Shown: piece after piece, positions 2,368 to 22,386 of the stretch
How the letters are laid out: each line of letters starts with the position of its first letter
How positions within the stretch are numbered: position 1 is the stretch's first letter
Source: a virus
Taxonomy: Duplodnaviria > Heunggongvirae > Uroviricota > Caudoviricetes
Strand: one strand, 5' to 3'
Length of the DNA stretch: 34,634 bases
Virus record (IMG/VR): IMGVR_UViG_2541047873_000007
Program-made: the position numbers and the translations under genes
Notes under the pieces: generated by a model
The model's database searches: none
What the model saw: the letters and a program-made list of their open reading frames with translations, nothing else
What the model was told of the DNA's origin: nothing

Positions 2368-2389
2368 GATATTAAAGGCGTTTAAGAAG
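2368..2389 (-). promoter_or_regulatory. Late promoter/activator-site motif A (GATATTAAAGGCGTTTAAGAAG), upstream of the gp25-like gene
   Basis: One of four copies of a 22-bp motif confined to intergenic DNA upstream of late operons; a hairpin (2337-2353) lies between it and ATG 2336. Confidence 0.5.
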
Positions 2390-2390
2390 C

Positions 2391-2987
2391 TCAGTGGGAG
2401 TGGTGGCTGGAGTTTTCGCCATCAGACAGCATACTGCCCGTGGCATGGGCATTCCCTTTAATCTCGATATTGCCATGGATGGTCGCGGTAACACCTTTAC
2501 CACCAGAACCCGCCATGCCTCCTTCGTAAATCAGCTTTCCCCTGACACGCAGATCTCCGGTAAGTTCGGTTTCCGGTGCGTCAATCGTGGCTTTCTGTGT
2601 TTTCAATACCACATCAGCACCACACTCAATGACAATATGCTCAATGCCGCCCCGGATGGTCAGAGTGTGCGTCTTCCGGTTGTAGCTGTACTCTGCACCA
2701 TCAGCAAACCGGGTTCCCCGGATATTTTTGTCACTGAACGGTGGTTTATCGACGTCTGAATACACCGCGCCCAGAATAACACCATCCTCGCCGTTGGCAT
2801 CGAGCAGCACCTCAACCTGCTCCCCCACGTCAGGGAGCCAGTAATCTTTGTTATCCTGGGTATTACGCTGCAGCACGTTAAGCCAGTTTGTGCGCAGGTT
2901 ATCGCATTCAGGCAGACGAACGCGGGCCTGAACCCTGTCGGCATCAACGGCACTGACCGTACCGACCTGACGAGTGACACCAGTCAT
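2391..2987 (-). CDS. Baseplate assembly/spike protein V-like (Mu gp45-like)
   Basis: 198 aa; position between the hub protein and the gp25-like gene; stop/start overlap with the upstream gene. Confidence 0.65.
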   Translation of the reverse strand: MTGVTRQVGTVSAVDADRVQARVRLPECDNLRTNWLNVLQRNTQDNKDYWLPDVGEQVEVLLDANGEDGVILGAVYSDVDKPPFSDKNIRGTRFADGAEYSYNRKTHTLTIRGGIEHIVIECGADVVLKTQKATIDAPETELTGDLRVRGKLIYEGGMAGSGGKGVTATIHGNIEIKGNAHATGSMLSDGENSSHHSH

Positions 2988-4138
2988 TTTTTCTTCTCCT
3001 TAATCACCGTCGATGTACTGCCATCCGGGTGATAAACCGTGAGTTTCTGAGTTTTTTGTTTTTTCCCTCTTGTGACTGGCCCCCGTGCCACTTCCAGCTC
3101 TGTGGTGTAGCCGCTGTTACGGTCAAACGCATGGCGGGCAGTGGTTATGAGCCATGGCCCGGATAACTGCCCAAAACCCACCAGTTCAATTTTGTTGCCT
3201 GCTGTCAGTTGAGGTGTTCCCGTCAGCGTCAGGGAGCCGTTCTGCTGGTATTCGTTATGTCTGGCCAGTGCTGAATCCGCTTTAATCCGGGCACTGTCCG
3301 GGTCGCTGACGCGGCTGTTAACTTTAAGTGAGTCAGCGCTGGTAACCTTACCACCTTTGAGCTTTTTGTCGCTTTCACGGGTACCACCATCAGCTTCGTG
3401 GACGATCAGTTTTTTACTGCTGCTTTTCTGGTGTTTTACCTTTGCAGATTTATAGACCCGGTTGATGGTGTCACGCAGGGAAAAGCGGGCCACATCCTGC
3501 GGTTTTAACTGCCTGACCGTCTCCTGACTGCGCAGTGTGGCCAGATGAGAAAAAATCAGCTGGTCACTGACCACTTTCACTGCATAACCATACTCGCTGG
3601 CCAGCCGGCGCAGAAAACCCACGTCGGTTTCAGCATACTGGGTCACCCGGTCGATTCTGATGGACTCAATGCTGCCCACCAGTTTCAGCCGGTGCTTTCT
3701 GGCAATCCGCCCCGCAACAGCTGCCAGCGTGGTGTTCTCAAAACCACGGCTGGATTTAGTCCGCAGAGCACTGTTAACCGAGGTGGCCACCCCACGGATA
3801 GAAACAACGGAAGCGGGCGAACTCACTTCGATCTCGTCTATAGAGAACGTACCGCAGGACAGCAGCTTCTCGCCCTGATAGCCCATTTTCAGCGTCAGCG
3901 TGTCACCCTTGCCCGGATACCACTTATCCAGCCAGCGGCCATCGGTGTCGTCCAGCTCCACCTCAATGGTATCGGACTCATTTTTGATGTTATCGCTCCA
4001 GGTCACACGGGTGACATAAGGCGCGATATCAGAGGTGATGTTTTTCTGCAGATACCACAGAGTGAACACCGGTGTCAGCACATCGCTGACGCCGGTTAAC
4101 GCTGATGTGACTTGCGCAGTGCTGTTTATCTCAGCCAT
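2984..4138 (-). CDS. Tail/baseplate hub protein (Mu P / P2 gpD-like)
   Basis: 384 aa; synteny downstream of the tape measure, matching Mu gp44 in size. Confidence 0.65.
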   Translation of the reverse strand: MAEINSTAQVTSALTGVSDVLTPVFTLWYLQKNITSDIAPYVTRVTWSDNIKNESDTIEVELDDTDGRWLDKWYPGKGDTLTLKMGYQGEKLLSCGTFSIDEIEVSSPASVVSIRGVATSVNSALRTKSSRGFENTTLAAVAGRIARKHRLKLVGSIESIRIDRVTQYAETDVGFLRRLASEYGYAVKVVSDQLIFSHLATLRSQETVRQLKPQDVARFSLRDTINRVYKSAKVKHQKSSSKKLIVHEADGGTRESDKKLKGGKVTSADSLKVNSRVSDPDSARIKADSALARHNEYQQNGSLTLTGTPQLTAGNKIELVGFGQLSGPWLITTARHAFDRNSGYTTELEVARGPVTRGKKQKTQKLTVYHPDGSTSTVIKEKKK

Positions 4139-4341
4139 GGGGCAATATCCTCTTCTGTACGGGCTTCTTCAGTCTCAATCACCGGGATCAGTAACAACAG
4201 CCCGGAGGGCAGCACCGGCGTGATGGCCACGTGCGGATTGGCGGCAATAATCCGGGGATAGCCCAGCGGGTCACCGTAGTACTGCCATGCCAGCGAATCC
4301 CAGCGCTCTCCGTCACGGGTAACATGTTCAAGAAACATCAC
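4126..4341 (-). CDS. Small tail protein, P2 gpX-like
   Basis: 71 aa; small protein inside the tail module; gpX-like assignment by size and position. Confidence 0.45.
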   Translation of the reverse strand: MMFLEHVTRDGERWDSLAWQYYGDPLGYPRIIAANPHVAITPVLPSGLLLLIPVIETEEARTEEDIAPWLR

Positions 4342-5222
4342 ACACTCCTCGTCAGTATTCTGGCGGCCATTGCACTTAATCCCGGAGACATGCGGTTGAA
4401 TGCTGTGCCGGCGGCGTTAAGCTGCCCGGAAACGGTATCCAGAGCACCTGCAATATTTCTTTTGTCCACACCACTCAGCGCAGACTGTGCCTGCTGTACA
4501 TACGTGGCTGCTTCGCTGGCTGTTCTGGCCAGACTGATGGCATCGGGCATGGATTCAGAGAGTGCGTTAAACGCCGGAACACTTTTCCCCAGAGCCCCGG
4601 AGATATTACCCAGTCCGCTCATCAGCCCCGGCACACGGGTCAGTGCGACAACGGGGTTATCCTTCATTTTCTGTGTCACCCGAACGGCGCTGATAGTGGT
4701 CTGGAGTACAGACTGCGCCTGTTTCGCATAGTTGACGCCGTTGCGGATGAACTGCGCCACCCCTGAAGGTGAAGGAATGGCACCGGAGACCGCCCCGACA
4801 CCCGGGAGCTTCGTGCGTATTGCCGGTGGTTGCAGAGGATTTTTCGGATCACCGGTGTATTCCCGGAGAGACACGGTGGCACTGACAGCCAGCACGTTAC
4901 CGGTGCTGTCTGTCTGCTCGCTGGTTGCGGTCACATCGGTAATCACGAACCAGCCACGATAGTCACCGTTGCCGAAGACCAGCGCCAGTGCCTGATGGGC
5001 TTTCATGGCTGTTCGCAGTCTCGCCAGCTCCACATCGGGTACACAATAATGCTGATGGAAAACCAGAGTTATCTGGATTTCGTCCAGCCTGTCGCCGACG
5101 AACTGCAGGCCAGGCTTACCCCCGATGCGGGCATGCTCCGCATAATCGACGCCGAACGTGGCCTCGAAGCCGTCCCAGTAGGTAATCAGCTCAAACTCAA
5201 TATCACCCAGTACGGCAAACAT
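4338..5222 (-). CDS. Tail protein (Mu N / DNA-circularisation-like)
   Basis: 294 aa immediately downstream of the tape measure, co-directional and overlapping. Confidence 0.5.
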   Translation of the reverse strand: MFAVLGDIEFELITYWDGFEATFGVDYAEHARIGGKPGLQFVGDRLDEIQITLVFHQHYCVPDVELARLRTAMKAHQALALVFGNGDYRGWFVITDVTATSEQTDSTGNVLAVSATVSLREYTGDPKNPLQPPAIRTKLPGVGAVSGAIPSPSGVAQFIRNGVNYAKQAQSVLQTTISAVRVTQKMKDNPVVALTRVPGLMSGLGNISGALGKSVPAFNALSESMPDAISLARTASEAATYVQQAQSALSGVDKRNIAGALDTVSGQLNAAGTAFNRMSPGLSAMAARILTRSV

Positions 5223-8200
5223 CAGCGGTACTCCTTACGTTGTTTCTGAGCCAGCAGACGCTCCAGCATTTTTTCCAGCTCATGCAGGCTCATATTCAGG
5301 GCGCCAGTCAGTCCGGCAGGCGCTGTGGTTTCCCTGCCATTGAGGAAAAACTGAGGATTAAAGCTGACCTGGATACCACCAGACGTTCCACCGCCGGTTG
5401 CAGCTGCACCACGGCCTGAATATCCGGCAGCCAGGATTTCAGGCGAGGGGATACGGGGAACATCCGGTGTCATCTCATTTGCCAGACGTTGCCCTGGTAA
5501 AATCGATGCCCGGGTGGAGAGCGGAATAGCGGGCATGGAAGACAAACTATTGATTACGGCTCCGATCGCATTTTTAGCAGACGACATAAACCCATTGATA
5601 TCGGGCAACGGCATACTGAAGCGAACACCTGAAGTGTTATCCCGTATTTCTGGCCCCTGAATGCTCACGGGCATTTTGGGGAGCAGTTCACTGGCCATTC
5701 GCTGCCCGGCCAGAGCTGCAAGCGGAGTGGTCCGCTGCAGGCCAATGGCGGCCCCCTGCGCGATATTGTCACCAAAGCCCATAAACACGCGGCTCGGCGA
5801 ATGAATGCCCAGCTTTTCGCTGAACCAGCCACTGATGCTGTCACCCATTCCGGTTACACTGGATTTGAGCGACTCCCATTTGTTTTTGATACCGTTAATC
5901 AGACCGTCGACAAGATGGCCACCGAAGTCGGTGAACTTTGCCGGCAGATCAACACCAAGATATTTCAGCGCAGCTGCAAAGGCTTTATAGAGCAGACCTG
6001 CCGGCGACCAGTTAATCAGCAGCTTACCAGTTCCCGCGATACCGCCGTTAAAGGCTTCCTGAATGTCAGCCCAGCACTGTTTAAACCAGCTACTGATGCT
6101 GTCACCCATTCCGGTTACACTGGATTTGAGCGACCCCCATTTGTTTTTGATACCGTTAATCAGACCGTCGATAAGATGGCCACCGAAGTCGGTGAACTTT
6201 GCCGGCAGAGCAACGCCGAAATATTTCAGCGCAGCCGCAAAGGCTTTATAGAGCAGGCCTGCCGGCGACCAGTTAATCAGCAACTTACCAGTTCCCGCGA
6301 TACCGCCGTTAAAGGCTTCCTGAATGTCAGCCCAGCACTGTTTAAACCAGCTACTGATGCTGTCACCCATTCCGGTTACACTGGATTTGAGCGACCCCCA
6401 TTTGTTTTTGATACCGTTAATCAGACCGTCGATAAGATGGCCACCGAAGTCGGTGAACTTTGCCGGCAGAGCAACGCCGAAATATTTCAGCGCAGCCGCA
6501 AAGGCTTTATAGAGCAGGCCTGCCGGCGACCAGTTAATCAGCAACTTACCAATTCCCACAATGCCGCCGTTAAAGGCTTCCTGAATGTCTGCCCAGCGCT
6601 GTTTAAACCAGCCACTGACTGCCCCCCAGTTGCGGTAGATAAGGTAAGCTGCTGCCGCGACAGCGGTGATAACGAGACCGATGGGATTCATCATCAGCGC
6701 ACGTCCAATCCAGAGAACAGCACGTCCGGCGAGCATAATTCCGCGAACCAGCCCCCCGGAGAGCACGCCACTCAGTGTTCTGGCTCCTTTGGCGACGGCG
6801 CTAAATCCGGTCACCAGCCAGCGGAGCTTACCGCCTTGCCCCAGTGCGAGCGACAGACGAAGCCAGTTGGCCCGAAGTAAAACAGCATTTTTCCAGACAC
6901 TTACAAAGGGGGAAATAAGGAGATTCAGCCCCAGTTTGAGACCAACAGTCGCTATCTTAATCGCAAGGAGCGCACTGATGAGCTTAAAAGCCCCACTGAC
7001 AAATTGCGGGTGAGTCGCTACCCAGTGTTTTGCCCCCTGAATGAGTGGAAGCAGTTCCTGAGTCAGAGAAATAAAAGATGGAGCTAATTGATCGCCCAGC
7101 GTAATTGCCAGATCACGACTGCTGACCATAAGTGCTTTAGTGGCTTCAAGGGGAGATTTCAGCCGCTGATCATAAGCACTGGCAAGCAAATCGTTATCCG
7201 CAGCCCTGAGAGCACCGGCACGGATCTCTCGATATCTGTCCATGTTGGCCAGCATCGGGCGGATAAATGCCATGACCTGCATATCCGCGAACATATCGCC
7301 CAGACCAAAGTTTTTCGCCAGAGCCTGAAGTGCCTCATCTCTTGCCGTATCATTCTTTATTTTCATGGCTGATTTGAAGCCGGCCAGCGCTTCGGGGCTT
7401 TTGGCATTGAGGTAACGTTCTATAACACTCAACATCCCTTCAATCGGAGAGATCCCCGCAGCTTTATAACTCGCAATAGATCCCTGCAAATCAATACCCA
7501 GATCAGCAAACTGTTTCTGAGTATCGCGGGCAAAAATTTTGGTAAGAAAGTTTTTAAAATTATTGGCTGCTTCGTCGGTGGAACCTGCACCGATTTTTGC
7601 TATCTGGAGACTGGCCCCGATTTCAGCAACAGCCTCTTTTCCACTGGCAATACCCGCCATCATTGGGGCCAGGGACTGCATCCACTTGACCTGATCCGGG
7701 ATTTCAAATGACCCCTGGTCACCGGCATAAGCCATAATATTCTGAACGGCACCAAAATCTCTGGCCGCACCTTTCAGGGAGTTTTGCCAGACTGCGGCCA
7801 CTTTTGCCCAGTCCTGAGCAGACGTGCGTGTTGCCGTTGCCGCGCGGGCAATATCCGGCATCAGAAAACCGATATCTGACACATTATCAATATTGTCGCT
7901 GATGAGTGAACCCACCGCCTCCTGCAGCTCATCCTGATACTGATTGTATTTAAGCGCCCAGCCTTTTATCTGTCCGGCAAGTGCATCCCGCGTTTTATTG
8001 TCATATTTTGCGGTGATCGACATATCAATCATTTTGTCCTGAAAAGACATGGACTGCTGAACGGCAGGGGAAACCGTATGATAAACAGTCTGTGCCATGC
8101 CATACGCTTCAATCCCCTGACCATACAGCGCCATGCGGTTAGCTTTCAGCGCATCACTGGTAGCGGATGCCGCTGACAGACGGCGCTGCTGGCGCTCAAT

Positions 8201-8434
8201 TTGCTCCATGGTGCGGCTTACCCGCAGCAGCTCGCTGTTGAGATGCTGCATCCGGGAAGAACCCAGTTGACCATAACGTTCTGTTGCACGGGTTAAAGCG
8301 TTCTGACGTTCCTGCAGGCGGCGTGAGGTATCGCTCAGGGAATCAAGCGCACGGCGGGTACCGCTCATTGCAGAACGGAATGTGCTACCAATCATCCCGC
8401 CGATAACAACGCCGACTGAAAACTGTCCCGACAT
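5222..8434 (-). CDS. Tail tape measure protein
   Basis: 1070 aa; helical N-terminus, hydrophobic central segments, internal 87-aa triplication; GGAGG 8 nt upstream of ATG 8434; sits between chaperone and baseplate genes. Confidence 0.9.
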   Translation of the reverse strand: MSGQFSVGVVIGGMIGSTFRSAMSGTRRALDSLSDTSRRLQERQNALTRATERYGQLGSSRMQHLNSELLRVSRTMEQIERQQRRLSAASATSDALKANRMALYGQGIEAYGMAQTVYHTVSPAVQQSMSFQDKMIDMSITAKYDNKTRDALAGQIKGWALKYNQYQDELQEAVGSLISDNIDNVSDIGFLMPDIARAATATRTSAQDWAKVAAVWQNSLKGAARDFGAVQNIMAYAGDQGSFEIPDQVKWMQSLAPMMAGIASGKEAVAEIGASLQIAKIGAGSTDEAANNFKNFLTKIFARDTQKQFADLGIDLQGSIASYKAAGISPIEGMLSVIERYLNAKSPEALAGFKSAMKIKNDTARDEALQALAKNFGLGDMFADMQVMAFIRPMLANMDRYREIRAGALRAADNDLLASAYDQRLKSPLEATKALMVSSRDLAITLGDQLAPSFISLTQELLPLIQGAKHWVATHPQFVSGAFKLISALLAIKIATVGLKLGLNLLISPFVSVWKNAVLLRANWLRLSLALGQGGKLRWLVTGFSAVAKGARTLSGVLSGGLVRGIMLAGRAVLWIGRALMMNPIGLVITAVAAAAYLIYRNWGAVSGWFKQRWADIQEAFNGGIVGIGKLLINWSPAGLLYKAFAAALKYFGVALPAKFTDFGGHLIDGLINGIKNKWGSLKSSVTGMGDSISSWFKQCWADIQEAFNGGIAGTGKLLINWSPAGLLYKAFAAALKYFGVALPAKFTDFGGHLIDGLINGIKNKWGSLKSSVTGMGDSISSWFKQCWADIQEAFNGGIAGTGKLLINWSPAGLLYKAFAAALKYLGVDLPAKFTDFGGHLVDGLINGIKNKWESLKSSVTGMGDSISGWFSEKLGIHSPSRVFMGFGDNIAQGAAIGLQRTTPLAALAGQRMASELLPKMPVSIQGPEIRDNTSGVRFSMPLPDINGFMSSAKNAIGAVINSLSSMPAIPLSTRASILPGQRLANEMTPDVPRIPSPEILAAGYSGRGAAATGGGTSGGIQVSFNPQFFLNGRETTAPAGLTGALNMSLHELEKMLERLLAQKQRKEYR
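5825..6607. repeat. Three tandem copies of a 261-bp (87-codon) unit inside the tape measure gene
   Basis: Units start at 5825, 6086 and 6347; copies 2 and 3 near-identical, copy 1 slightly diverged; protein repeat SWFKQ(C/R)WADIQEAFNGGI...GMGDSIS x3. Confidence 0.9.
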
Positions 8435-8509
8435 AGTGGTTAACCTCCGGGGAAGGTGAAAAGACGTGAGGGGATAACGCAGAACAGCCGCTACTGGCGG
8501 CTGTCTGTA

Positions 8510-8767
8510 CTATGATTTGTCGCCGTACTCGCTTTTTATTTGCTCTTCAGCCTGCTCCAGCCACATCTCCAGATCGTCAGTATCGAGGGCATCAATCTCC
8601 CCCGGCTGAAACCGGAACCATCTCGCCAGCAGCCCCTGCGCCTGCGTCAGCGCCCTGGTTGCTCTCACCCATCCCCGTGATGAGCTGAAATCGTTTCTGT
8701 AACTGCAGGTAATCAGCCAGATCCATATTGTCGAGATCTTCCGGGAGAAGACCAGTACTGCGGGCAA
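8510..8767 (-). CDS. Probable frameshift extension of the tail chaperone
   Basis: Overlapping ORF in another frame; only its C-terminal about 35 aa (FQPGEIDALDTDDLEMWLEQAEEQIKSEYGDKS) look protein-like. Confidence 0.4.
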   Translation of the reverse strand: MPAVLVFSRKISTIWIWLITCSYRNDFSSSRGWVRATRALTQAQGLLARWFRFQPGEIDALDTDDLEMWLEQAEEQIKSEYGDKS

Positions 8768-8927
8768 TCAGCGGTTCGTCCCAGTCTGCCGGGTTTTTGC
8801 TGATTTTGCGCACCTGCTTCAGGTCTTTTACCGTCAGGCGTTTCAGTTCAACCAGCTCAATTCTGGTGCCTGCAGCAGTGGTGAAGGGATAAGACAATTT
8901 AAAAGTATCGGATGGGGTCTGTGACAT
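8592..8927 (-). CDS. Tail assembly chaperone
   Basis: 111 aa directly upstream of the tape measure; AGGAG 8 nt upstream of ATG 8927. Confidence 0.6.
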   Translation of the reverse strand: MSQTPSDTFKLSYPFTTAAGTRIELVELKRLTVKDLKQVRKISKNPADWDEPLIARSTGLLPEDLDNMDLADYLQLQKRFQLITGMGESNQGADAGAGAAGEMVPVSAGGD

Positions 8928-8979
8928 GATTGTGCTCCTGTGTAAGTTCAGGGCAGTATGTCGGGAGAAGCGCGTGACG

Positions 8980-9001
8980 GATATTAAAGGAGATTAAGAA
9001 G
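8980..9001 (-). promoter_or_regulatory. Late promoter/activator-site motif B (GATATTAAAGGAGATTAAGAAG), upstream of the tail chaperone
   Basis: 20 of 22 positions identical to motif A; 53 nt upstream of ATG 8927. Confidence 0.5.
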
Positions 9002-9002
9002 A

Positions 9003-9018
9003 AGGGGCCGGAGCCCCT
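9003..9018 (-). terminator. Hairpin GGGGC-CGGA-GCCCC downstream of the 93-aa ORF, next to late promoter motif B
   Basis: Perfect 5-6 bp GC stem seen in sequence; the following T-run is weak. Confidence 0.3.
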
Positions 9019-9024
9019 GTGATG

Positions 9025-9306
9025 TCAGCAAGTGCGAAACCCCTTGCAGTTACGCAGGAAAGCGATGAGAAGCGTCTTTCCCTCAGATTTGCCGATGCCG
9101 GAGAACCAGTGGTCGGGAGGCTCCCATGCTTCAATCAAATCCGCCAGTTTGCGGGCCTTTGAACGTGTGCAGTCAATCGGGTCATTGGTTTTACGGGTAT
9201 TAAAAAGGGTTTCCACCCCCGGAATATCAAGGAGGGTAAACCACGTACCATTTGACATGCCCAGTGCCGCACATCGTCCTCCTTTATCCGTCAGTTCAAC
9301 ACTCAC
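9025..9306 (-). CDS. Hypothetical protein between tail tube and chaperone
   Basis: 93-aa ORF, co-directional, followed by a hairpin; no recognisable motif. Confidence 0.4.
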   Translation of the reverse strand: MSVELTDKGGRCAALGMSNGTWFTLLDIPGVETLFNTRKTNDPIDCTRSKARKLADLIEAWEPPDHWFSGIGKSEGKTLLIAFLRNCKGFRTC

Positions 9307-9308
9307 CG

Positions 9309-14841: not shown

Positions 14842-14896
14842 TTTGCTGTCCCGCGTTATGTTGTCGGAGACAGTTTGTGAGAAATGCAGGCCCGGC

Positions 14897-14919
14897 GATT
14901 TTAATCTGCTTTAGAAAAC
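14897..14919 (-). promoter_or_regulatory. Late promoter/activator-site motif D (GATTTTAATCTGCTTTAGAAAAC), upstream of the protease/scaffold gene
   Basis: Weaker copy (core GATTTTAA ... TTTAGAA) in a 214-nt intergenic region, 56 nt from ATG 14841. Confidence 0.35.
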
Positions 14920-14965: not shown

Positions 14966-15013
14966 TTATAAAACAGAGGCTGTAAAGCCTTTATAAAGGT
15001 AATACAGCCCCTC
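14966..15013 (-). terminator. Stem-loop plus T-run after the G-like gene, upstream of late promoter motif D
   Basis: Arms 14976-14984 and 15003-15012 enclose the perfect palindrome CCTTTATAAAGG; minus strand then reads TGTTTTATAA. Confidence 0.35.
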
Positions 15014-15055: not shown

Positions 15056-15514
15056 TCAGCGACGGGCCGCTGATTCAAGATGGCGGACAATGGTATCGAG
15101 GATGGGGATTACCACTTCAGGCTGTAGTTCTCCATCCCCCGTCACCGGCAGGAACGGGCGGGCCGGAAGTTCAACAGACTCATTACGCCCCGTTTTACCC
15201 CCGAACTGGTGAATGGCACCGTAAACAACGTTGGTCCCCACAACAGCCTGCCGGTCGTCATGGTCGGTTGATACTGACCCCATCAGACGCCCGGTATCCT
15301 GCAGTGTCTGCCCGTCACGTTCTTCCGCTGCCAGCGAGGGGATCCACCCCGGACGCCCCTCATCAAGAAAGTTAAACTGTGTTTCCGCCAGCAGGGTTCC
15401 GGCGATTTTGCGCATCGCGGGCTCCAGGTCTGTGGCAGCAAGATCCAGCGCACGGAGGCTCCGGCGCAGGGATTTATCGTTAATGGTGATACTGACCAGG
15501 TTATCGGAAGCCAT
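15056..15514 (-). CDS. Virion morphogenesis protein (Mu G-like)
   Basis: 152 aa between the F-like and I-like genes. Confidence 0.6.
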   Translation of the reverse strand: MASDNLVSITINDKSLRRSLRALDLAATDLEPAMRKIAGTLLAETQFNFLDEGRPGWIPSLAAEERDGQTLQDTGRLMGSVSTDHDDRQAVVGTNVVYGAIHQFGGKTGRNESVELPARPFLPVTGDGELQPEVVIPILDTIVRHLESAARR

Positions 15515-15516
15515 TG

Positions 15517-16338
15517 TTATCCTCTCAGTTCCTGTTGTGCCAGTGGCTGAAGCGTACCCTGATAGCGGGCCAGGTCGGGACGGTATGCTGCCCCCGGTGC
15601 ATAAGACCAGCCGACGTCGGTGGTCACCTTCGTGGTGCCGGTATTAAAGGTGGCCACGTTCCGCATTTCGCCGGTTTTCTCTGAGACCAGTTTCAGTTCC
15701 TGGCCCATGGCAGAGCCGGAGCTGATAACCTTCAGGCCACGGGCACGGACATCCGCCGCACTCAGGGCAATCACACTACAGCGGCAGCGCCAGCCGTTCG
15801 GCGGGTAAAATGCCTGCCAGAACGGGTCATCCCAGCGCAGCACCAGACCATGCAGCGCCAGATGGCTCCTGCGGGTATGGCTGTCGTTGATGCCGGTATA
15901 CATCCAGTACGGCCTGTCGTCGACGTTTTCCATCTGTTCCGCCCAACGACCGGCGCTGTAGAGTACGGACATATTGGTGCGAAAGATGGTATCGAGCCGC
16001 CACGGACTGCCCTGCTGAATGGTGACCGGCTTACCCGTTACCGGGTCAGTCGTGTCACGTGGTCCCCACCATCCCTTACGCTTCAGCACCGGCTCCAGCT
16101 CCTGCCGGAACCAGCGATCGGTTTTTCCTTCATCGACAGCCTGCTGCAGTGCCCCGCGAATATCTTCCAGGATATCCAGGCGGGTCACTTTAGCAACGGT
16201 AAAGGCGCGGGCATGGGCCTCCTGCCACATTTCTTCCCAGTCCCAGGTAATCTGATACCCTTTGGACTTCAGGTAACTGACTGCCCGCTTCGGGGGAAGC
16301 GTCATGCAGTACGCCAGTTCAGCCGTTGTCACGCTCAT
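15517..16338 (-). CDS. Minor head / head morphogenesis protein (Mu F-like)
   Basis: Start chosen at ATG 16338 (GGGGA 7 nt upstream); position after the portal gene; start uncertain. Confidence 0.65.
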   Translation of the reverse strand: MSVTTAELAYCMTLPPKRAVSYLKSKGYQITWDWEEMWQEAHARAFTVAKVTRLDILEDIRGALQQAVDEGKTDRWFRQELEPVLKRKGWWGPRDTTDPVTGKPVTIQQGSPWRLDTIFRTNMSVLYSAGRWAEQMENVDDRPYWMYTGINDSHTRRSHLALHGLVLRWDDPFWQAFYPPNGWRCRCSVIALSAADVRARGLKVISSGSAMGQELKLVSEKTGEMRNVATFNTGTTKVTTDVGWSYAPGAAYRPDLARYQGTLQPLAQQELRG

Positions 16339-17815
16339 GCAGACGTCCCCGGATATTTGCCACAAAGAGAATACGGGCCAGCCGTTCCTGCAGATCGTCC
16401 GTGTTCATCTGAGGGTAGAGCTCCGCCAGTTCGCCCAGCAGCTCAGTCGGGTTAACCCCGTTTTCGACCCGCTTAAACAGAGGTGCCAGGACGGGTTCCA
16501 GCGTGCCATTTAACACACCTCCGTTCATCAGAATGTCCAGCGCGTCGTCAAGCTGCTGCTGAGCCTGAATATCGGCATCAATCGCCTCGGCAAATGACAG
16601 CGGCAGCATGTTATTCTGGCGTTCCGACGGTGATGTCTCGTCAATATCGCCGTCCTGCAGTTGGTACTCACGCTTAAAGTATTGCGGGGTCAGACGCAGA
16701 CCCGCCCGGGTGAGTTTTTCGTCGCGGGTGGCGCGGGTGTCATCAATGGTCTCCTGTTCCCACATGGCCCAGACCGGACACGGCACATCGCCGAAGTTCA
16801 GGGTGACCACCGTTCTGATAACCTGATTCACTGCTGCCTGAATGATGTCCGCATCCGCATCGCGGATATCAGCCGTTACCTCCAGCCCGGCCTGTGCAGA
16901 GGCCTTGTTACTGTTCGCTTCCGTGGTCTGATTCTGACCAAGTAATGCAATGGAGATCTCACTGCGTGACAGTGTGATCAGCTCGCGGAATACCTCGCTG
17001 CTGTCCGCCTTACCATCCGCGGCTTTGAGTTCGATGCTGCTGTCATCGGGGATGGTGGCCACCGCGTCCTCCACCATCTGCTCCATGGAGTCCAGCAGTT
17101 TTTCAATCTCTGCATCATTTGCACCCCTCGGGTGCTTACCGATCACCCACGGGGAGCCAAACTTTTCGGCAAAGCGGAGCCAGAATTTCATCCCGCCTTT
17201 CTTGAAGGCGACCGGCCAGAAGCACATGGACAGGTCCGGGAAACCGTAAGGATTGTCATACGAGGCATCCTGTGCCGGCACCACGAATTTTGACGGTGAC
17301 AGCAGCTCACCCTCCACACCCGCATCACGCGCCCGGAAGCGCAGGCAGTTGTCCGTATCAAACTGAAACCACTCAGGCGGTTTGCCGACAATATCCGTCA
17401 CTGCCCACGCCCTGACCGAACGGCCCCACATGATTTCACAGGGCTGATACCCGTAGAGCACGGCATCACTCATCTCACCGATGATGCGGGACAGATCCAG
17501 ATCGTCGAGCATGTCGCGGATGAAACGGAAGACCCGGGCAGAAGCGTGACCGCGCTCCAGTCCACGCTCCAGTGATTTGAGCGCTGCTTTACGTCTGCGG
17601 ATACAGCCCCCAACCAGCGGGTCGGTGCGCAGTTCGCGGTAGATACGGATATCCCGTCCCTGAGCCTTGAGAATGGGATCAGGATTGGGCAGATACATGC
17701 CCAGTCCGTAAAAGTCGATCGCGCGGCTGCGGGAGGCAATCTGCGCGGTCAGTGATTTCTGAGGCTCAGAAAAAGCAACAAATTCATCGGGTGAAACCCA
17801 GATACCCCTCGCCAT
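16319..17815 (-). CDS. Portal protein (Mu gp29-like)
   Basis: 498 aa immediately after the large terminase with TGATG stop/start overlap. Confidence 0.8.
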   Translation of the reverse strand: MARGIWVSPDEFVAFSEPQKSLTAQIASRSRAIDFYGLGMYLPNPDPILKAQGRDIRIYRELRTDPLVGGCIRRRKAALKSLERGLERGHASARVFRFIRDMLDDLDLSRIIGEMSDAVLYGYQPCEIMWGRSVRAWAVTDIVGKPPEWFQFDTDNCLRFRARDAGVEGELLSPSKFVVPAQDASYDNPYGFPDLSMCFWPVAFKKGGMKFWLRFAEKFGSPWVIGKHPRGANDAEIEKLLDSMEQMVEDAVATIPDDSSIELKAADGKADSSEVFRELITLSRSEISIALLGQNQTTEANSNKASAQAGLEVTADIRDADADIIQAAVNQVIRTVVTLNFGDVPCPVWAMWEQETIDDTRATRDEKLTRAGLRLTPQYFKREYQLQDGDIDETSPSERQNNMLPLSFAEAIDADIQAQQQLDDALDILMNGGVLNGTLEPVLAPLFKRVENGVNPTELLGELAELYPQMNTDDLQERLARILFVANIRGRLHERDNG

Positions 17816-19410
17816 CAGAATCCCTCCAGCATACGGGCCGCCTGACGACGACGGCGTGAGCTTGCCTTCACCGGCCCTTTGTTAATTTCACGGCTGGCGA
17901 AATACGCCAGCGCCAGTGCGATGGCTGAATCCCCGTGGCGTTTACCACCGTCAGCCTTTGCTTTTGAGCGTTGCTCCGGTACGCGGGGGACACCGTTCAC
18001 CACCTGAACGGCCCGCAGGTCATCCAGTGTGTCTTCATCCTTTGGTAAGTCCACCAGGTTACCGTCTTCCAGTGCAGCTTTGACCGGAGGCATATGCTCC
18101 CGGTACCAGCCTTCGGTTGGCATCACCTGCTGAACCCGGCCGGAGCCGTAGCGCTGCATGGCGTATTCAGCCAGATAGGCACCATTACCACGGGCATCAA
18201 ACGCTGCACCCAGCAGACCGGGCAGGCCATCCATCAGATACCAGGTGATTTGCTCCTGCTGTCTGAACGGCACGTTACGCAGCTCCAGTACGAATGGCAC
18301 GCGTCGTACCAGGTTCTTCTCCTGCAGCAGGGGATAGTCCACCGACAAATCACCGCTACGGCCAAAGTCGCGCCCCAGGAAAGAGCGGGCATCAGTGGGG
18401 AGTGCCTCCAGCAAGGGTTTCAGATACTCATCAAGCCAGTCCTGCGTCTCGCGGAAGCGAACCTCATCAGACAGCAGTTCATAACCTTCCTTGCAGGTCA
18501 GACGCAATACCGGCGTATCAGCGGACATGCGGGACTCTATCAGGGCACGGGACAGCCAGGCACCGCCACCGTTGGCCGGAATACAGTCAAGCTCTTCGGA
18601 TGCGCCGGCACCGTAGAATTTGTACACCGATGCCATCCAGGCCTGCTCGGATGCCTCCGACCATTCCTTCCCGGTGCGCAGACAGACGCGCCGGAACAGC
18701 CCCTCAGATACGGCTTCCCGGAAAGTGATGCGATGTATGCTGCCTCCCTGACGTCCGGCACGGATATCCCCGATAAGCGTATTGAACGGATTGTCGTCAC
18801 CGTCATGGGTGGAGATAACGCGTACCTTTCCCCCCCAGATAAGCATCGCCAGCGCCGCTTTCAGCAGTTCGTCCAGTTGCTCATGGAACGCCGCTTCGTC
18901 GATAACAATAATACCCTGACGGCCACGCAGGTTAGACGGGCGGCTGGAGAGCGCAACAATACGAAAGCCGGAGTCAGGAAATTTGATGGTGTAAGTCCTG
19001 ATGTGTTTGTCGTCGTCGTCCTCTTCCCAGAATCCTTCTTCAATTTCACTGGCCGCATAGTTGAATGCCCGTGCCCACATCGCACACGCCTGAATGTATT
19101 CGACGGTCATGTCCTGGTTATAAGCGATGTAATACACATTCATCCCGCCTGCTGGCGCAGAAGAGGCGGCGGTCAGTACGTTATCGGATGCCTCAGCCCA
19201 TGTAATACCGGTACGACGGCTCTTTTCTATCACCTTAAGCGGAGAGGTGTCTGCCACCCAGCGCTGCTGGTAAGGCAACAGAACGGGAGGAGCATCCAGC
19301 GCCGAGGTATCAGGCAAAACGGGAGCAAGGTTATTCCTCCCGTCCATGGGACTCATCCCTTCGGGGCCACCGCCAGCGGCGTTTAAAATCACTCCGGATG
19401 ATTTTGTCAT
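17815..19410 (-). CDS. Terminase large subunit (Mu gp28-like)
   Basis: 531 aa, acidic patches, between small-terminase-like and portal genes. Confidence 0.8.
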   Translation of the reverse strand: MTKSSGVILNAAGGGPEGMSPMDGRNNLAPVLPDTSALDAPPVLLPYQQRWVADTSPLKVIEKSRRTGITWAEASDNVLTAASSAPAGGMNVYYIAYNQDMTVEYIQACAMWARAFNYAASEIEEGFWEEDDDDKHIRTYTIKFPDSGFRIVALSSRPSNLRGRQGIIVIDEAAFHEQLDELLKAALAMLIWGGKVRVISTHDGDDNPFNTLIGDIRAGRQGGSIHRITFREAVSEGLFRRVCLRTGKEWSEASEQAWMASVYKFYGAGASEELDCIPANGGGAWLSRALIESRMSADTPVLRLTCKEGYELLSDEVRFRETQDWLDEYLKPLLEALPTDARSFLGRDFGRSGDLSVDYPLLQEKNLVRRVPFVLELRNVPFRQQEQITWYLMDGLPGLLGAAFDARGNGAYLAEYAMQRYGSGRVQQVMPTEGWYREHMPPVKAALEDGNLVDLPKDEDTLDDLRAVQVVNGVPRVPEQRSKAKADGGKRHGDSAIALALAYFASREINKGPVKASSRRRRQAARMLEGF

Positions 19411-19952
19411 GTGGCAATCCCCAGAATCTCGCGACGAAGCGCCTGTACTGCGTCGCTTGACAGTCCCCCCTTACGGGCAATTTTCTCGGCGTTGCTGGCT
19501 GCCTGCTGCGCTCTGGCCCGTACTTCAGACTGGAACTTTTTGAGGTTGACGGACGCGCGGGACAGCGTAGCCACATTCTTCGCCACCTTCGACAGCAGGG
19601 CCACGCGTTCTTTAGGATCGACTTCGCCTTCTTCCGCCTCCTGCAACTGGACAATACTCTCGAACAGCTCGGTCTGAATAAGGGCTATCACAGCCTCCGA
19701 ACGCGCATCCTGATCGTCTGCTGCGCCTTCGGTCAGCATGCGGGCCGCTTCTGTTGCCGCACGGATAGCACCATAGCGGCGCTCAATCTTCTGTCCATAG
19801 CGATGGATAGCGGATTTGCTGATGACGTACCCCCGCTCACGCAGCAGGGACTCCAGCTCGTTATACCCGCTGAAGCCGGATTCAGTCAGCGCCCGTTCAA
19901 GCCAGCGGCGCACATCTTCCGGCAGCTTTTCTATTGTGCTGCGTCTGGCCAT
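19407..19952 (-). CDS. Terminase small subunit / DNA-binding protein (Mu gp27-like)
   Basis: 181 aa, basic helical N-terminus (MARRSTIEKLPEDVRRWLERAL...), immediately upstream of the large terminase. Confidence 0.6.
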   Translation of the reverse strand: MARRSTIEKLPEDVRRWLERALTESGFSGYNELESLLRERGYVISKSAIHRYGQKIERRYGAIRAATEAARMLTEGAADDQDARSEAVIALIQTELFESIVQLQEAEEGEVDPKERVALLSKVAKNVATLSRASVNLKKFQSEVRARAQQAASNAEKIARKGGLSSDAVQALRREILGIAT

Positions 19953-20263
19953 TATTCACTCCAGTACTTTTCCGGGCGGGCAATACCCGGACCACATTCC
20001 ACGGTGTATTCCACCAGGTCTACGCCGAGGCGGGTCAGGTCAGCAAACCAGTCGCCAGAAGGTTTTTTCTCCAGATCAACCATTTTACGGTCAGCCAGAT
20101 AATCCAGTTCGCGGCGCAGTTCCAGCGGTGTGGTGTCCGGGTAGATGGCACGGGACACATCCAGCAGCAGCGTCTCGCTGGCGGTGTAAGGGCGGGTCTT
20201 GTTCAGGGCAACCAGCAGACTCCAGCGCAGGGATTCGCGGCGTACCCGGGTAATATCGACCAT
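19952..20263 (-). CDS. Hypothetical protein (Mu gp26 position)
   Basis: 103-aa ORF, co-directional and overlapping its neighbours. Confidence 0.4.
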   Translation of the reverse strand: MVDITRVRRESLRWSLLVALNKTRPYTASETLLLDVSRAIYPDTTPLELRRELDYLADRKMVDLEKKPSGDWFADLTRLGVDLVEYTVECGPGIARPEKYWSE

Positions 20264-20589
20264 TATTGACCTCCGGTATTGCGGTACTGCTGTACCACTT
20301 CCAGTTTGTTATAAAGCGCGTCCAGTTTGGCCTCAATGACTGTCTGGCCACGGATATAATCCTCTCGACGGACATAATTCAGCGGTAAATCCGCTTTAAA
20401 TCGCATAAATTCTTTTTCCAGCTCGCCCCAGTTGGAGGCGGATTGTTGCAGGGCCTGTTCAAGGGAGGCGAATCGTGCCGCCTGGCGTTCTTCTGTTTTA
20501 CTGAACAACCATTTGGCGAGCCCTCCCACAAACCCCATGAAGGTGAGCAGAAAACTCACCACCGTCCAGAATTCAACCTGCAGTGTCAT
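20263..20589 (-). CDS. Membrane-anchored coiled-coil protein (Mu gp25 position, lysis-associated)
   Basis: 108 aa with an N-terminal transmembrane segment (FWTVVSFLLTFMGFVGGLAKWLF) then a helical region. Confidence 0.45.
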   Translation of the reverse strand: MTLQVEFWTVVSFLLTFMGFVGGLAKWLFSKTEERQAARFASLEQALQQSASNWGELEKEFMRFKADLPLNYVRREDYIRGQTVIEAKLDALYNKLEVVQQYRNTGGQ

Positions 20590-21236
20590 TTCTGTAATCC
20601 TTCCCGTTCATCCAGTAACGCGTTTATCTGGTTCCGCCAGCGACGACATTGTCCTGCGTTGTCGATGATGTTGGCGAGAACGTCACGCTGGGAGACACCC
20701 GAATCGCGTAACCGGGTGTCAGTGGTTTCAGGTTGCCCGGTCGCTGTGCCAGAGCGGGTGCCAGCGGCGGCAACTGAGTCTGAATGACCGGTGTCGACGG
20801 ATGCGTTGTCATATCCGAGTGCGGCGTTGTACTGGCGCACGAAACCGCGAGTAAACACGCACTCAATGGGATGGCTCTTACCTTTTTCATCAATCCAGCG
20901 CTGTGTGACATCGTTAATTTGCCCCTGTAGTTGTTTATTCCGGCTCTCCAGTTGAGCAATCTGCTCAAGATAACCGGCTTCAGCCCGCTGCCCGGCGGCC
21001 ACCTGCTCCTGATACCGTCTGGCCCAGGCCCGCAGCGCAGCATTCTCAAGCGTTGCCTGCTCCGTTTTGTACGCGTCAAATGCTGACTGCAACTGACTGA
21101 GCGCGGTATCACCGTCACGCTTTGCAGAGTCATGACCACTTCTGTATCCCATGGCATACAGGCCGACCAGAAAGGCATTGATAAGAATGGCCAGCAGAAT
21201 GCCGCGCCACGGCAGCTTTTTAACCAGATGCCACAC
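20586..21236 (-). CDS. i-spanin (Rz-like)
   Basis: Short N-terminus, transmembrane segment WRGILLAILINAFLVGLYAM, long coiled-coil periplasmic domain; start ambiguous (GTG 21236 proposed, in-frame ATG 21338 would overlap the endolysin). Confidence 0.55.
   Translation of the reverse strand: MWHLVKKLPWRGILLAILINAFLVGLYAMGYRSGHDSAKRDGDTALSQLQSAFDAYKTEQATLENAALRAWARRYQEQVAAGQRAEAGYLEQIAQLESRNKQLQGQINDVTQRWIDEKGKSHPIECVFTRGFVRQYNAALGYDNASVDTGHSDSVAAAGTRSGTATGQPETTDTRLRDSGVSQRDVLANIIDNAGQCRRWRNQINALLDEREGLQK
20624..20890 (-). CDS. o-spanin (Rz1-like lipoprotein) embedded in the i-spanin gene
   Basis: 88 aa in the alternate frame starting MKKVRAIPLSAC (lipobox LSAC), proline-rich mature part; ATG at 20890. 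Confidence 0.55.
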   Translation of the reverse strand: MKKVRAIPLSACLLAVSCASTTPHSDMTTHPSTPVIQTQLPPLAPALAQRPGNLKPLTPGYAIRVSPSVTFSPTSSTTQDNVVAGGTR

Positions 21237-21960
21237 AACTGCTGCCTCCCCATGTGAGATATCGCGGTGCCAGTTCGCGCAGGATGCGCTGCGGATAATG
21301 GCGGTTCTCCCGCCAGCTGGCCGCATTGCGTCCGGCATTCACCGTGGCGACATGTCCGAACCAGCGGGTGCTGTCCAGACCTTTCTGTGATGCAAGCCGC
21401 CTGTCCCGTTGTACCCAGCCCAGACCACCGTTATAGCCCGACAGTGTCATGGCCATACGCTCGCAGTCACTGGCGGCGCTGACACGCTGCCACAGCCAGC
21501 GGTCATAGCTGACCAGCGCCCGGATAGCCCATGCCGGATTAAACGGCTCACGACTGCTCAGCATCGGTATCAACTGGCTTATCCAGTCGGCAGTGGCAGG
21601 CATGAACTGCGCCAGTCCCTGAGCGCCAGCCGGCGAGATCGCATCAGGTCGCCAGCCGCTTTCCTGATGCAGTTGCGCGGCGAAATCGGCCACCGGCGCA
21701 GACAGTCCCCATTCAAGCCGGGCATTACGGATCACATCATCGCGATACTGCAGCGCAGCCTGCGGAGGTTGTGCTGCGCATGCCTGGCTAAAAAAGCCGC
21801 CACACCAGAGCAACATTGCGACAAAGAATACCCATGCCATATGAACCAGAAAGGTCCCGGCGCGGACTGACAGGCGTTCGGTTCTGATGAAGACCCGAAA
21901 GGCTTCGAAAGCCAGTTTCAGGGACATGCATACAATCCAGGTGATCTGCGGCCAGTTCAT
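21220..21960 (-). CDS. Endolysin, lytic transglycosylase type, with N-terminal hydrophobic region
   Basis: Motif QLHQESGWRPDAISPAGAQGLAQFMP (catalytic Glu-Ser, SLT-like); N-terminal MAWVFFVAMLLWCGGFF signal or signal-anchor-like segment. Confidence 0.8.
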   Translation of the reverse strand: MNWPQITWIVCMSLKLAFEAFRVFIRTERLSVRAGTFLVHMAWVFFVAMLLWCGGFFSQACAAQPPQAALQYRDDVIRNARLEWGLSAPVADFAAQLHQESGWRPDAISPAGAQGLAQFMPATADWISQLIPMLSSREPFNPAWAIRALVSYDRWLWQRVSAASDCERMAMTLSGYNGGLGWVQRDRRLASQKGLDSTRWFGHVATVNAGRNAASWRENRHYPQRILRELAPRYLTWGGSSCVASG

Positions 21961-21962
21961 GA

Positions 21963-22313
21963 TTAAAGCCCCATCGCAACAGCCAGGCAGACCGCTGCAA
22001 CAATCAGTGCACGGCGGATTAACGCAGCAGAAAACACCAGGTGAAGGCCGGTCTGTACCGGGAAACGCCCTTCAGCCATCAGCCTGTCGTCATGTTTCAG
22101 GTACTGACCGGGACGGGCTTTGGGGAAGAGCGAACGGTCAAGCCAGTAACCCAGCACTGCTGCCAGCGTGATGAGTGCCAGCTTGTAGATCACAACAGGC
22201 AGCTGCTGTGGTGAGACCAGAGCGATGGTGCCCAGCAACAGCACTGAGGTCAGCAGCCAGCCGCTGAGGCGAGGTTTTTTAACAGGGGGAATGAATTTTT
22301 TCAGGTTTTTCAT
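21963..22313 (-). CDS. Holin candidate (three predicted transmembrane segments)
   Basis: 116 aa from ATG 22313 with AAGGAG 7 nt upstream; three hydrophobic helices; immediately upstream of the endolysin. Confidence 0.45.
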   Translation of the reverse strand: MKNLKKFIPPVKKPRLSGWLLTSVLLLGTIALVSPQQLPVVIYKLALITLAAVLGYWLDRSLFPKARPGQYLKHDDRLMAEGRFPVQTGLHLVFSAALIRRALIVAAVCLAVAMGL

Positions 22314-22363
22314 GTGTGTCTCCTTATCTGGTGGAGACAGCATCACAAATACAGGGCGCGAAG

Positions 22364-22386
22364 GATTTTAAAGCGCGTTAAGAGAG
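22364..22386 (-). promoter_or_regulatory. Late promoter/activator-site motif C (GATTTTAAAGCGCGTTAAGAGAG), upstream of the holin/lysis operon
   Basis: Shares GATwTTAAAG...TTAAGA with A and B; 51 nt upstream of ATG 22313. Confidence 0.45.

Follow-up and report, generated by a model that had tools for sequence, protein, structure and literature searches.

We found that four copies of a 22-bp motif upstream of late genes are very probably sites for a Mor-type activator at sigma-70 promoters, each of which has a weak -10 element 23 bp downstream of the site and no -35 element. These copies lie in a BcepMu-like transposable prophage of E. coli, which we analysed as a stretch of 34,634 nucleotides (hereafter the window). 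Prophages of this type are present in 571 of 5426 complete E. coli genomes (about a tenth) and have relatives in Klebsiella, Burkholderia, Neisseria and Pasteurella. The promoters are familiar in kind; they extend what is known from phage Mu and do not alter it. Our literature search returned nothing relevant on late promoters or Mor boxes of BcepMu or Bcepmuvirus, although the BcepMu genome paper or the 1996 Pm mutagenesis paper may mention them.

The late genes of the window are on the minus strand, and the early operon ends with a plus-strand gene (33002-33391, after gemA) whose product belongs to the Pfam Mor family (PF08765; E 1.3e-43) and shares 30% identity with Mu Mor and 37% with Mu C. 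This protein presumably binds the four boxes. A preliminary description of this DNA had stated that no other Mor/C-family gene is present, and tblastn searches with Mu Mor, Mu C and BcepMu gp01 indeed recovered only 33002-33391 in the window. The single activator gene is a direct observation.

Each of the four motif sequences was present where the preliminary description had placed it. The motif is to be read on the minus strand, where it has the form TCTTAA-N5-TTTAAWATC and thus contains a TTAA-N6-TTAA dyad. The putative Mor box of the baseplate operon (2368-2389; dyad TTAA-ACGCCT-TTAA, 2372-2385) precedes W/gp25 (ATG 2336) by 32 nt, and that of the tail operon (8980-9001; dyad TTAA-TCTCCT-TTAA, 8984-8997) precedes the tail chaperone gene E (ATG 8927) by 53 nt. 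The box of the head operon (14897-14919; dyad CTAA-AGCAGA-TTAA, 14901-14914) is located 56 nt before the protease gene (ATG 14841). The box of the lysis operon (22364-22386; dyad TTAA-CGCGCT-TTAA, 22368-22381, with flanking conserved bases), for which holin-gene boxes of relatives provide the comparison, is located 51 nt before the holin gene; the holin start is ATG 22313 and not the GTG at 22346 given in the open reading frame list. These distances agree with the 32 to 56 nt previously given for the four late operons. The head-operon site had been called the weaker copy. Its CTAA-N6-TTAA dyad does differ from the other three, yet this is the commonest head-protease variant across the family.

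A degenerate motif pattern with one mismatch allowed matched three sites, compared with 0.00 expected from shuffled sequences, and TTAA-N6-TTAA occurred three times in the whole 34.6 kb, each time at one of the four sites. The extended pattern YTWA-N6-TTAAWA-N22-A-N3-T, which was built post hoc with the sites already known, matched the four sites and nothing else, always on the minus strand; the expected number was 0.01. The looser YTWA-N6-TTAAWA gave one additional match, at 9190-9205 on the plus strand, which lies within a coding sequence and has no -10 element at the right distance. The motif occurs only at these four sites, all of them intergenic, in agreement with the restriction to intergenic DNA that had been claimed.

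The preliminary description did not include a -10-like hexamer that we found exactly 23 bp 3' of every dyad (4/4): AATACT at the W site (2343-2348), CATACT at E (8955-8960), CAAACT at the protease gene (14872-14877) and GATGCT at the holin gene (22339-22344), all on the minus strand. The last of these agrees with the family profile described below and is preceded by TG, as in an extended -10. Because the hexamer sits 23 bp downstream, the centre of the dyad falls near -43. The hexamers are weak, with three to four of six consensus matches, the best -35 match at the four sites was one to three of six positions, and a consensus promoter scan predicted no canonical sigma-70 promoter at any of them. 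We infer activator binding, activator dependence and the start points from this arrangement, with minus-strand starts predicted from the hexamers at ~22332 (19-nt leader to the holin ATG), ~14865 (24-nt leader to the protease ATG), ~8948 (21-nt leader to the E ATG, containing the Shine-Dalgarno sequence AGGAG) and ~2336. As the W start codon comes six bases after AATACT, the W mRNA is predicted to be leaderless, and probably is; the same layout is found in BcepMu and a Pasteurella phage.

We observed both this architecture and its conservation directly. The box, the 23-bp spacing and the -10 element are found at all four homologous junctions in BcepMu, Klebsiella phage KP12 and Pasteurella phage AFS-2018a, and they recur at homologous junctions in prophages of Pantoea, Erwinia, Serratia, Neisseria and Enhydrobacter. 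Mor of BcepMu is 54% identical to that of the window, and Mor of AFS-2018a is 46% identical. Across 36 genomic loci drawn from Enterobacterales, Burkholderia, Neisseria and Enhydrobacter, the pattern matched 67 times on the late-gene strand versus 3 times on the opposite strand, with nearly every coding-strand match preceding a holin/lysis, protease or tail-chaperone gene. The spacer between box and hexamer is unconserved in sequence: at 24 distinct V-W junctions the box and the -10 are kept, and the intervening stretch is constant in length and variable in sequence. Since a W-protein scan of viral contigs returned mostly close relatives, the deeper conservation of the W site rests on BcepMu and the Pasteurella phage, and the conservation of its -10 has a second possible cause, as the hexamer lies in a conserved hairpin loop. 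At distant protease loci (Marinobacterium, alphaproteobacteria and Magnetococcales) we found no TTAA box. A dRNA-seq table for B. cenocepacia J2315 lists a few transcript starts in the BcepMu prophage and none at the predicted late promoters. Promoters that need an activator would give this result, which is weakly consistent with the predictions; as those cells were uninduced lysogens, it neither confirms nor refutes them.

We considered whether the motif could itself be the core promoter, with TAAWAT as the -10, a start ~7 nt after the motif and TCTTAA as an auxiliary element. The TAATAT and TAAAAT of the window do match a -10 well, and leaders of 25-50 nt, as this would give, are nothing unusual. 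To obtain an unbiased profile, we collected 38 non-redundant dyad matches without requiring a -10 for inclusion. Its information peaks downstream of the dyad are four bases apart, at A (0.89, -11) and T (0.92, -7), with G at -14 reaching 0.74, and on this ground the TAAWAT of the motif is not the -10. The last base of the motif's TAAWAN is G at 0.50 and T at 0.42 in the same 38 sites, so that half of the family sites have G at the last position of the supposed hexamer; BcepMu, Neisseria and most protease sites have TAAAAG. No base of sigma-70 promoters is more conserved than T at -7. A core promoter at the motif would also leave unexplained the invariant 23-bp distance to the second A/T element (hexamer positions 2 and 6), and would place a full intrinsic terminator in every leader of the Neisseria and Pasteurella relatives. 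We consider this arrangement very unlikely, and read the motif as the dyad operator of the activator, at approximately -52 to -33, rather than a core promoter. A constitutive sigma-70 promoter with TAAWAT as its -10 was rejected, with TCTTAA only 8 bp upstream versus the 16-18 bp expected of a -35.

In comparisons spanning few independent lineages, the sequence of the box changes along with the recognition helix of Mor. Helices of the form S[LMI]QW[IV]Y pair with TTAA boxes. The helix TPSS of JBD25 pairs with TTCCAAAAG, followed after 23-24 bp by a -10, and the helix TEMR (locus L201) pairs with CTAA-N6-TTAG, followed after 23 bp by TAGGCT. The Mu Mor helix, TFNTVY, is unlike SLQW, though Pm has a similar box. 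Promoter architecture, phylogenetic footprinting and this covariation together support the late-promoter function that had been proposed for the motif. The covariation also bears on whether a protein other than Mor binds the dyad, such as a repressor, another early phage helix-turn-helix protein (25125-25313 or 25303-25674) or a host nucleoid protein. Several other helix-turn-helix proteins are encoded in the window, and an AT-rich dyad in GC-rich flanks could draw IHF or Fis. However, a site near -43 beside a promoter without a -35 is in the position of an activator and not of a repressor, its geometry is that of Mor and C sites, the box changes with the helix of Mor, and it is common to phages with differing immunity regions. 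A binder other than Mor is highly improbable.

A function at the level of RNA, in which the motif would be an AU-rich processing site or a U-rich terminator tail between operons, was likewise weighed. The motif is intercistronic and AU-rich, and at the E site it lies directly 3' of a GC hairpin. Two sites had been described as paired with an upstream terminator, and we located such structures on the minus strand at E and at the protease gene. At E, the terminator-like hairpin AGGGGCTCCGGCCCCT (9003-9018) ends the head operon, and its T-rich tail enters the distal E half-site. At the protease gene, one terminator-like hairpin (14977-14990) lies between G and the protease gene, upstream of the box, and another (15056-15073) overlaps the G stop codon. 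A hairpin immediately upstream of the motif is found at only one of the four sites, and the motif as an intrinsic terminator was discarded because it has no hairpin of its own and a hairpin abuts it at the E site only. The half-sites are palindromic as DNA, with a variable GC-rich spacer, the distance to the -10-like element is fixed, and no Rfam family matched anywhere in the window. We regard an RNA function as extremely unlikely.

The arrangement that we favour, a Mor-type operator upstream of a weak -10, closely follows that of Mu. Mu promoters combine a -10 with an imperfect 16-bp dyad whose centre is at -43.5; they lack a -35, and require -52 to -34 plus adjacent downstream bases (PMC2582627; PMC4287176). 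The annotated Mu sequence shows Pm as GTAA-AGCCGG-TTAA, followed after 23 bp by TATCCT; like the window promoters, Pm combines a -10 and no -35 with an imperfect dyad 23 bp before the hexamer and centred near -43.5, a fit to the published coordinates that assumes +1 at Mu position 9224. The Pm box is almost identical to the boxes of BcepMu and the window, and differs from the BcepMu box GTAAAGCCGATTAA at just one of 14 positions. As in the window, the activator gene mor of Mu comes after gemA and closes the early operon. The two systems differ in that Mu has one Pm, which drives C, whereas in the window four copies would act on the late operons themselves, without a middle tier. The window activator also shares only 30% identity with Mu Mor, and its recognition helix is different.

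The C-dependent late promoters of Mu and the promoters of the window are four in number and share one design, and two of them occupy corresponding positions, one ahead of the lysis genes and one in the G/protease gap. Their -10 hexamers are similar, with CAAACT (the hexamer of Mu PI and of the protease promoter) common to both. The Mu late half-site, however, is ATAA (TTAT-N6-ATAA), and in each of the four C-dependent promoters of the annotated sequence its proximal copy is separated from the -10 by 24 bp, in contrast to TTAA and 23 bp in the window. In box and spacing, the window promoters are at least as close to Pm, a Mor site, as to the C-dependent late promoters. The remaining two promoters of the window precede E and W in a P2-like tail module, whereas those of Mu are at P and mom. 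P2 and 186 (Ogr/B) resemble the window in having four late promoters and a small phage activator, and the window tail genes are P2-like, but the P2 box is TGT-N12-ACA near -55 and in P2 the tail promoters stand before FI and V. We rejected a P2-type Ogr promoter, as the 150 bp before each of the four start codons contained no TGT-N12-ACA, and no Ogr-type gene is annotated in the window.

We propose that induction would lead to transcription of the early operon, with the Mor-like gene at its end. The Mor-like protein would then bind the TTAA-N6-TTAA dyad, whose centre is ~43 bp before the start, along with the neighbouring WATC bases. Like Mor at Mu Pm and C at the late promoters of Mu, it would recruit the RNA polymerase of the host. 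The lysis box would drive an operon of lysis, packaging and early head genes; the protease box, the genes from the protease through the tail tube; the E box, those from the tail chaperone through baseplate V; and the W box, those from W through the tail fibre. The result would be a two-tier cascade, from early to late, versus the three tiers of Mu, suggesting that the Mu scheme is workable with one activator in place of two. This scheme predicts that lysis and virion production are switched on by one small protein, and the compact activator/promoter pair could be usable for reporters or for forcing or blocking induction. For annotation, TTAA-N6-TTAA, then 23 bp, then nAnnnT may serve as a rule for late operons across the family, and the analysis corrects the gene starts of the holin (22313) and BcepMu gp32.

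We also observed inverted repeats at the predicted promoters. Right before the W ATG, the repeat GGGGGC-AATACT-GCCCCC (2337-2354, minus strand; z -3.0) carries the -10 in its loop, and its stem is kept in BcepMu and the Pasteurella phage though the sequence differs. As it sits downstream of the box and lacks a T run, we rejected it as an upstream terminator. At the holin gene (22317-22339, minus strand), the 5' arm GTCTCC occupies -6 to -1 and the 3' arm GGAGAC is the Shine-Dalgarno sequence; this repeat is predicted to form only in RNA that reads through from upstream. Equivalent minus-strand hairpins lie at the E promoter (8933-8955), where the 5' arm precedes the predicted start and the Shine-Dalgarno sequence is in the 3' arm, and at the protease promoter (14846-14873). 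At each site, the 5' arm lies around the -10 or at -6 to -1, before the predicted start; the 3' arm either contains the Shine-Dalgarno sequence or abuts the ATG. A hairpin layout of this fold-back type is also visible in Mu Plys and PI.

In the fold-back inhibition of IS10, the 5' arm of an inverted repeat lies upstream of the element's own start. With the 5' arm upstream of the start, in IS10 as in the window, only read-through RNA can hide the ribosome-binding site; the likeness is in hairpin layout only, and the window hairpins are predicted. Read-through RNA may fold in this way while promoter-started RNA stays open, and in the Neisseria, Pasteurella and Enhydrobacter relatives read-through RNA may terminate as well. 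The RNA of W, and that of the protease gene in BcepMu and JBD25, may start at or one base before the ATG and be leaderless. We tentatively suggest, as something possible rather than probable, that these promoters are built so that only Mor-started transcripts are expressed, that these particular late mRNAs are leaderless, and that the symmetric lysis box is perhaps bidirectional and drives an adjacent variable cargo gene. On the plus strand, a weak candidate for a divergent -10, CAGGAT (22405-22410), lies 23 bp from the lysis dyad and before a P-loop gene (22444-22920).

The preliminary description had placed four copies of a 22-bp motif in front of the late operons and read them as Mor/C-dependent late promoters. 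All four sequences were found at the positions reported for them (2368-2389 before the baseplate gene W, 8980-9001 before E, 14897-14919 before the protease gene and 22364-22386 before the lysis genes) and, because the late genes lie on the minus strand, we read the motif as its reverse complement (GCTTCTTAAACGCCTTTAATATC, TCTTCTTAATCTCCTTTAATATC, GTTTTCTAAAGCAGATTAAAATC and CTCTCTTAACGCGCTTTAAAATC). A window-wide search confirmed that the four sites all lie between genes, and they fill the late region's four widest gaps, in front of the genes for holin, head protease, the tail chaperone E and the baseplate protein W. Ungapped alignment of the sites revealed a common TCTTAA-N5-TTTAAWATC, that is, a TTAA-N6-TTAA dyad plus WATC, with CTAA instead of TTAA in one of the four distal half-sites. 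TTAA-N6-TTAA occurs three times in the window, each time at a motif site, and degenerate patterns gave 3-5 matches compared with 0.00-0.07 expected from shuffles. The loose dyad pattern matched at only one further place (9190-9205, plus strand), which falls on the non-coding strand of CDS 9025-9306, lacks a -10 at the correct distance and is most likely due to chance. Upstream of the E site and of the protease site lie terminator-like hairpins, in agreement with the claim that two sites are paired with upstream terminators; the W-site hairpin lies 3' of the motif. The site finding is thus real, and the late-promoter reading, as judged from sequence, appears right in substance, with the four motifs predicted to be Mor-type late promoters of the known Mu kind.

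We also observed a feature that had been overlooked: at all four sites an nAnnCT hexamer followed by G begins exactly 23 bp past the proximal TTAA (AATACT, 2343-2348; CATACT, 8955-8960; CAAACT, 14872-14877; GATGCT, 22339-22344; all minus strand). A combined dyad, spacer and hexamer pattern, drawn up after the sites had been seen, matched in the window at these four places only, all on the coding strand, versus 0.01 expected. No -35 element was found at the four sites (best 1-3 of 6 matches), and TG lies ahead of the hexamer at the lysis site. When all dyad matches were collected with no -10 required and reduced to 38 non-redundant sequences, the information content of the profile had two peaks four bases apart (A, 0.89; T, 0.92), which are positions 2 and 6 of a hexamer beginning 23 bp past the dyad; G at -14 stood at 0.74. 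If the motif itself were the core promoter, a reading that we consider very improbable, the -7 position would not fit and the constant spacing between motif and downstream hexamer would be left unexplained; it also fails because terminators would then fall inside the leaders of relatives. The hexamer within the motif, TAAWAN, is not a -10, since the profile peaks at the downstream hexamer and the last base of TAAWAN is G (0.50) or T (0.42) in the 38 sequences. We propose instead that the dyad is an upstream operator.

Phage Mu provides a known system for comparison. Mu Pm and the four Mu late promoters have a -10 without a -35, the Mor or C site is an imperfect 16-bp dyad centered at -43.5, and positions -52 to -34 as well as the bases immediately 3' of the dyad are required (PMC2582627; PMC4287176). 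According to a 2025 preprint, Mor and C are bound as tetramers that touch alpha-CTD, sigma region 4 and the beta flap. In the promoter sequences taken from the annotated Mu record, the four C promoters contain ATAA, 24 bp and a -10 (TAGACT, CAAACT, TATCCT or TAAGAT), Pmom contains TTAT-N6-ATAA, and Pm reads GTAA-AGCCGG-TTAA, 23 bp, TATCCT, its dyad falling at the published -51 to -36 if the start is assumed to be Mu position 9224. Pm has the same 23-bp spacing as the window sites and a box close to theirs, and the conserved stretch in the window (approximately -52 to -33) is the region needed in Plys. From this architecture, we conclude that the window sites share the Mu design.

The arrangement is also conserved in relatives. 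BcepMu, whose genome is 63% GC and whose activator is 54% identical to that of the window, has boxes in the four homologous gaps (CTAAAGCCGATTAAAAG, GTAAAGCCGATTAAAAG, TTAATCTGCGCTGAAAG and TTAGCCGGCTTTAATAT), each followed 23 bp later by a hexamer (CAAGAT, GATGAT, GACAAT or CAACAT) plus G. Klebsiella phage KP12 (record OM835952, clone KP12_2) has the box and -10 arrangement of BcepMu, with the four predicted promoters of the window. Although filed under Vequintavirinae, this record holds a BcepMu-like transposable phage genome (86% identical), probably a co-purified prophage. Pasteurella phage AFS-2018a, with Mu gene order and a 46% identical activator, contains at the four equivalent junctions TCTTTAAAGCGCTTTAAAATC, 23 bp, and TATACT, TATTCT, TAAACT or TAATAT. 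Three more overlapping TTAA-N6-TTAA dyads lie in ~10-bp steps at AFS-2018a 16723-16767, a half-site array 50-100 bp 5' of the protease-gene box. Among 36 loci from a protease-protein scan (one genome per species), box, spacing and -10 preceded the protease gene in Pantoea, Erwinia, Mixta, Pectobacterium, Serratia, Symbiopectobacterium, Burkholderia, Neisseria and Enhydrobacter, and were absent in the Marinobacterium, alphaproteobacterial and Magnetococcales loci. Pattern matches across loci numbered 67 on the late strand versus 3 on the opposite strand, and nearly all coding-strand matches precede a holin/lysis, protease or chaperone gene. At the W site, 24 distinct viral-contig sequences retain the box as well as the GGGGCAATACTGCCCCC-ATG block, and the 13 bases between them vary in sequence and are constant in length.

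The gene at 33002-33391 (plus strand) is, as previously claimed, the only Mor/C gene found in the window; its product shares 30% identity with Mor and 37% with C. Its recognition helix begins SLQWVY, compared with SLQWIY in BcepMu and SMQWIY in the Pasteurella phage, and all three SxQW phages have TTAA boxes. JBD25, with a TPSSIY helix, has no TTAA dyad; it carries the box TTTTCGCnCCTTCCAAAAGAC three times, before lysis, protease and tape-measure genes, each with a -10 after 23-24 bp. A TEMRIY-helix contig contains AGCTAAAGCGCTTTAGCT, 23 bp and TAGGCT immediately 3' of its Mor gene. Across 80 contigs from a Mor-alignment search, examined for helix versus box, TTAA-box promoters were present in every case where late genes and an SxQW activator lay on one stretch, and were lacking from all five contigs whose helix was TPSS, TENA or TEMR. 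This covariation, which spans few independent lineages, supports the Mor-like protein as the predicted box binder. That some other protein binds the dyad is very improbable, as this disagrees with both the geometry and the covariation. An RNA element is at odds with the DNA-level palindrome, has no Rfam support and is scarcely credible. Control of the P2 type was excluded, as the 150 bp ahead of each of the four start codons contain no TGT-N12-ACA element.

We propose that early transcription would lead to production of the Mor-like protein, which would bind the four boxes and bring in sigma-70 polymerase, and that the four late operons would start at ~22332, ~14865, ~8948 and ~2336. As there is no second activator, the cascade would have two tiers. 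The dRNA-seq data for a BcepMu lysogen list no start at the predicted late promoters, weak evidence that fits silent, activator-dependent promoters.

Using the predicted starts, we inferred promoter hairpins, leaderless mRNAs and a possible divergent promoter. Each of the four window sites has an inverted repeat spanning the predicted start (2337-2354, 8933-8955, 14846-14873 and 22317-22339, minus strand), and such repeats also occur in BcepMu, the Pasteurella phage and loci L026 and L005. The 5' arm, upstream of the predicted start, occupies -6 to -1, or else the two arms flank the -10, and the 3' arm contains the Shine-Dalgarno or abuts the ATG. The hairpin could form solely in read-through RNA begun further upstream; trimming the part ahead of the predicted start loses 10-22 kcal/mol at most promoter-like sites (41 non-redundant family sites; mean z -2.6). 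The promoter repeats of the Neisseria, Pasteurella and Enhydrobacter relatives are full terminators shortly before the ATG, and Mu Plys and PI have the hairpin layout of the window.

Six bases separate the predicted hexamer from the W ATG in E. coli and BcepMu, and seven do so in the Pasteurella phage (W/gp25 starts: window 2336-2348, minus strand; BcepMu 30810-30825; Pasteurella phage 28238-28255); the start codon lacks a Shine-Dalgarno and the hexamer lies in the hairpin loop. Given this distance, a leaderless W mRNA is predicted, and the predicted starts suggest likewise leaderless protease mRNAs in BcepMu and JBD25. The annotated start of BcepMu gp32 (head protease; 18850-18862) overlaps the predicted -10 and adds an N-terminal MMGA; aligning it with the proteins of E. 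coli and Klebsiella favors ATG 18862. A 12-bp palindrome, CCTTTATAAAGG, lies at 14988-14999 (minus strand) between G and the protease gene, ~75 bp upstream of the protease box, and is followed by CTTTAC; very similar versions are kept in Enterobacterales, Burkholderia and Marinobacterium loci, and in Mu the corresponding gap holds the strong gyrase site and a terminator. On the opposite strand of the lysis dyad, CAGGAT (22405-22410, plus strand) occurs at 23 bp, followed by a Shine-Dalgarno and the P-loop gene (22444-22920, plus strand). Several relatives have CATGAT, CAGAAT or CAGGAT at 23-24 bp on that strand and, because these hexamers lie in unrelated flanks, one box, here the lysis box, may fire bidirectionally.

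Escherichia phage PhiKM (genus Bcepmuvirus) is 98.9% identical to the window's first 24.9 kb, which is 100% identical to prophages of many complete E. coli genomes; most of this stretch is contained in 571 of 5426 complete E. coli genomes. According to the RefSeq annotation of one identical prophage copy and Pfam scans, the minus strand carries the late genes, which comprise those for holin, lysis, terminase, portal, head, P2-like tail and baseplate, from 22313 to beyond position 1, a variable region and repressor occupy 22444-25074, and the early operon (Ner-like gene, transposase, ATPase, gam, gemA, Mor-family gene) spans 25125-33391 on the plus strand, followed by host DNA on the gadC side. 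BcepMu has the same divergent early/late layout. A mechanical ORF (21963-22346, minus strand) starts at GTG 22346, within the lysis promoter; the true holin start is ATG 22313, preceded by AAGGAGA, in agreement with RefSeq. The region from lysis promoter to repressor (22444-25074) differs from PhiKM 29700-32200 despite near-identity of the remaining phage: where PhiKM encodes a DNA adenine methylase among others, the window has the P-loop gene and two genes of unknown role. This cargo hot spot adjoins the bidirectional-looking lysis box. At the Mor-side end (window 33392-34634; 2589-3222 in locus L001), the prophage adjoins, next to gadC, a truncated gene of glycoside hydrolase family 10, into which it appears to have inserted.
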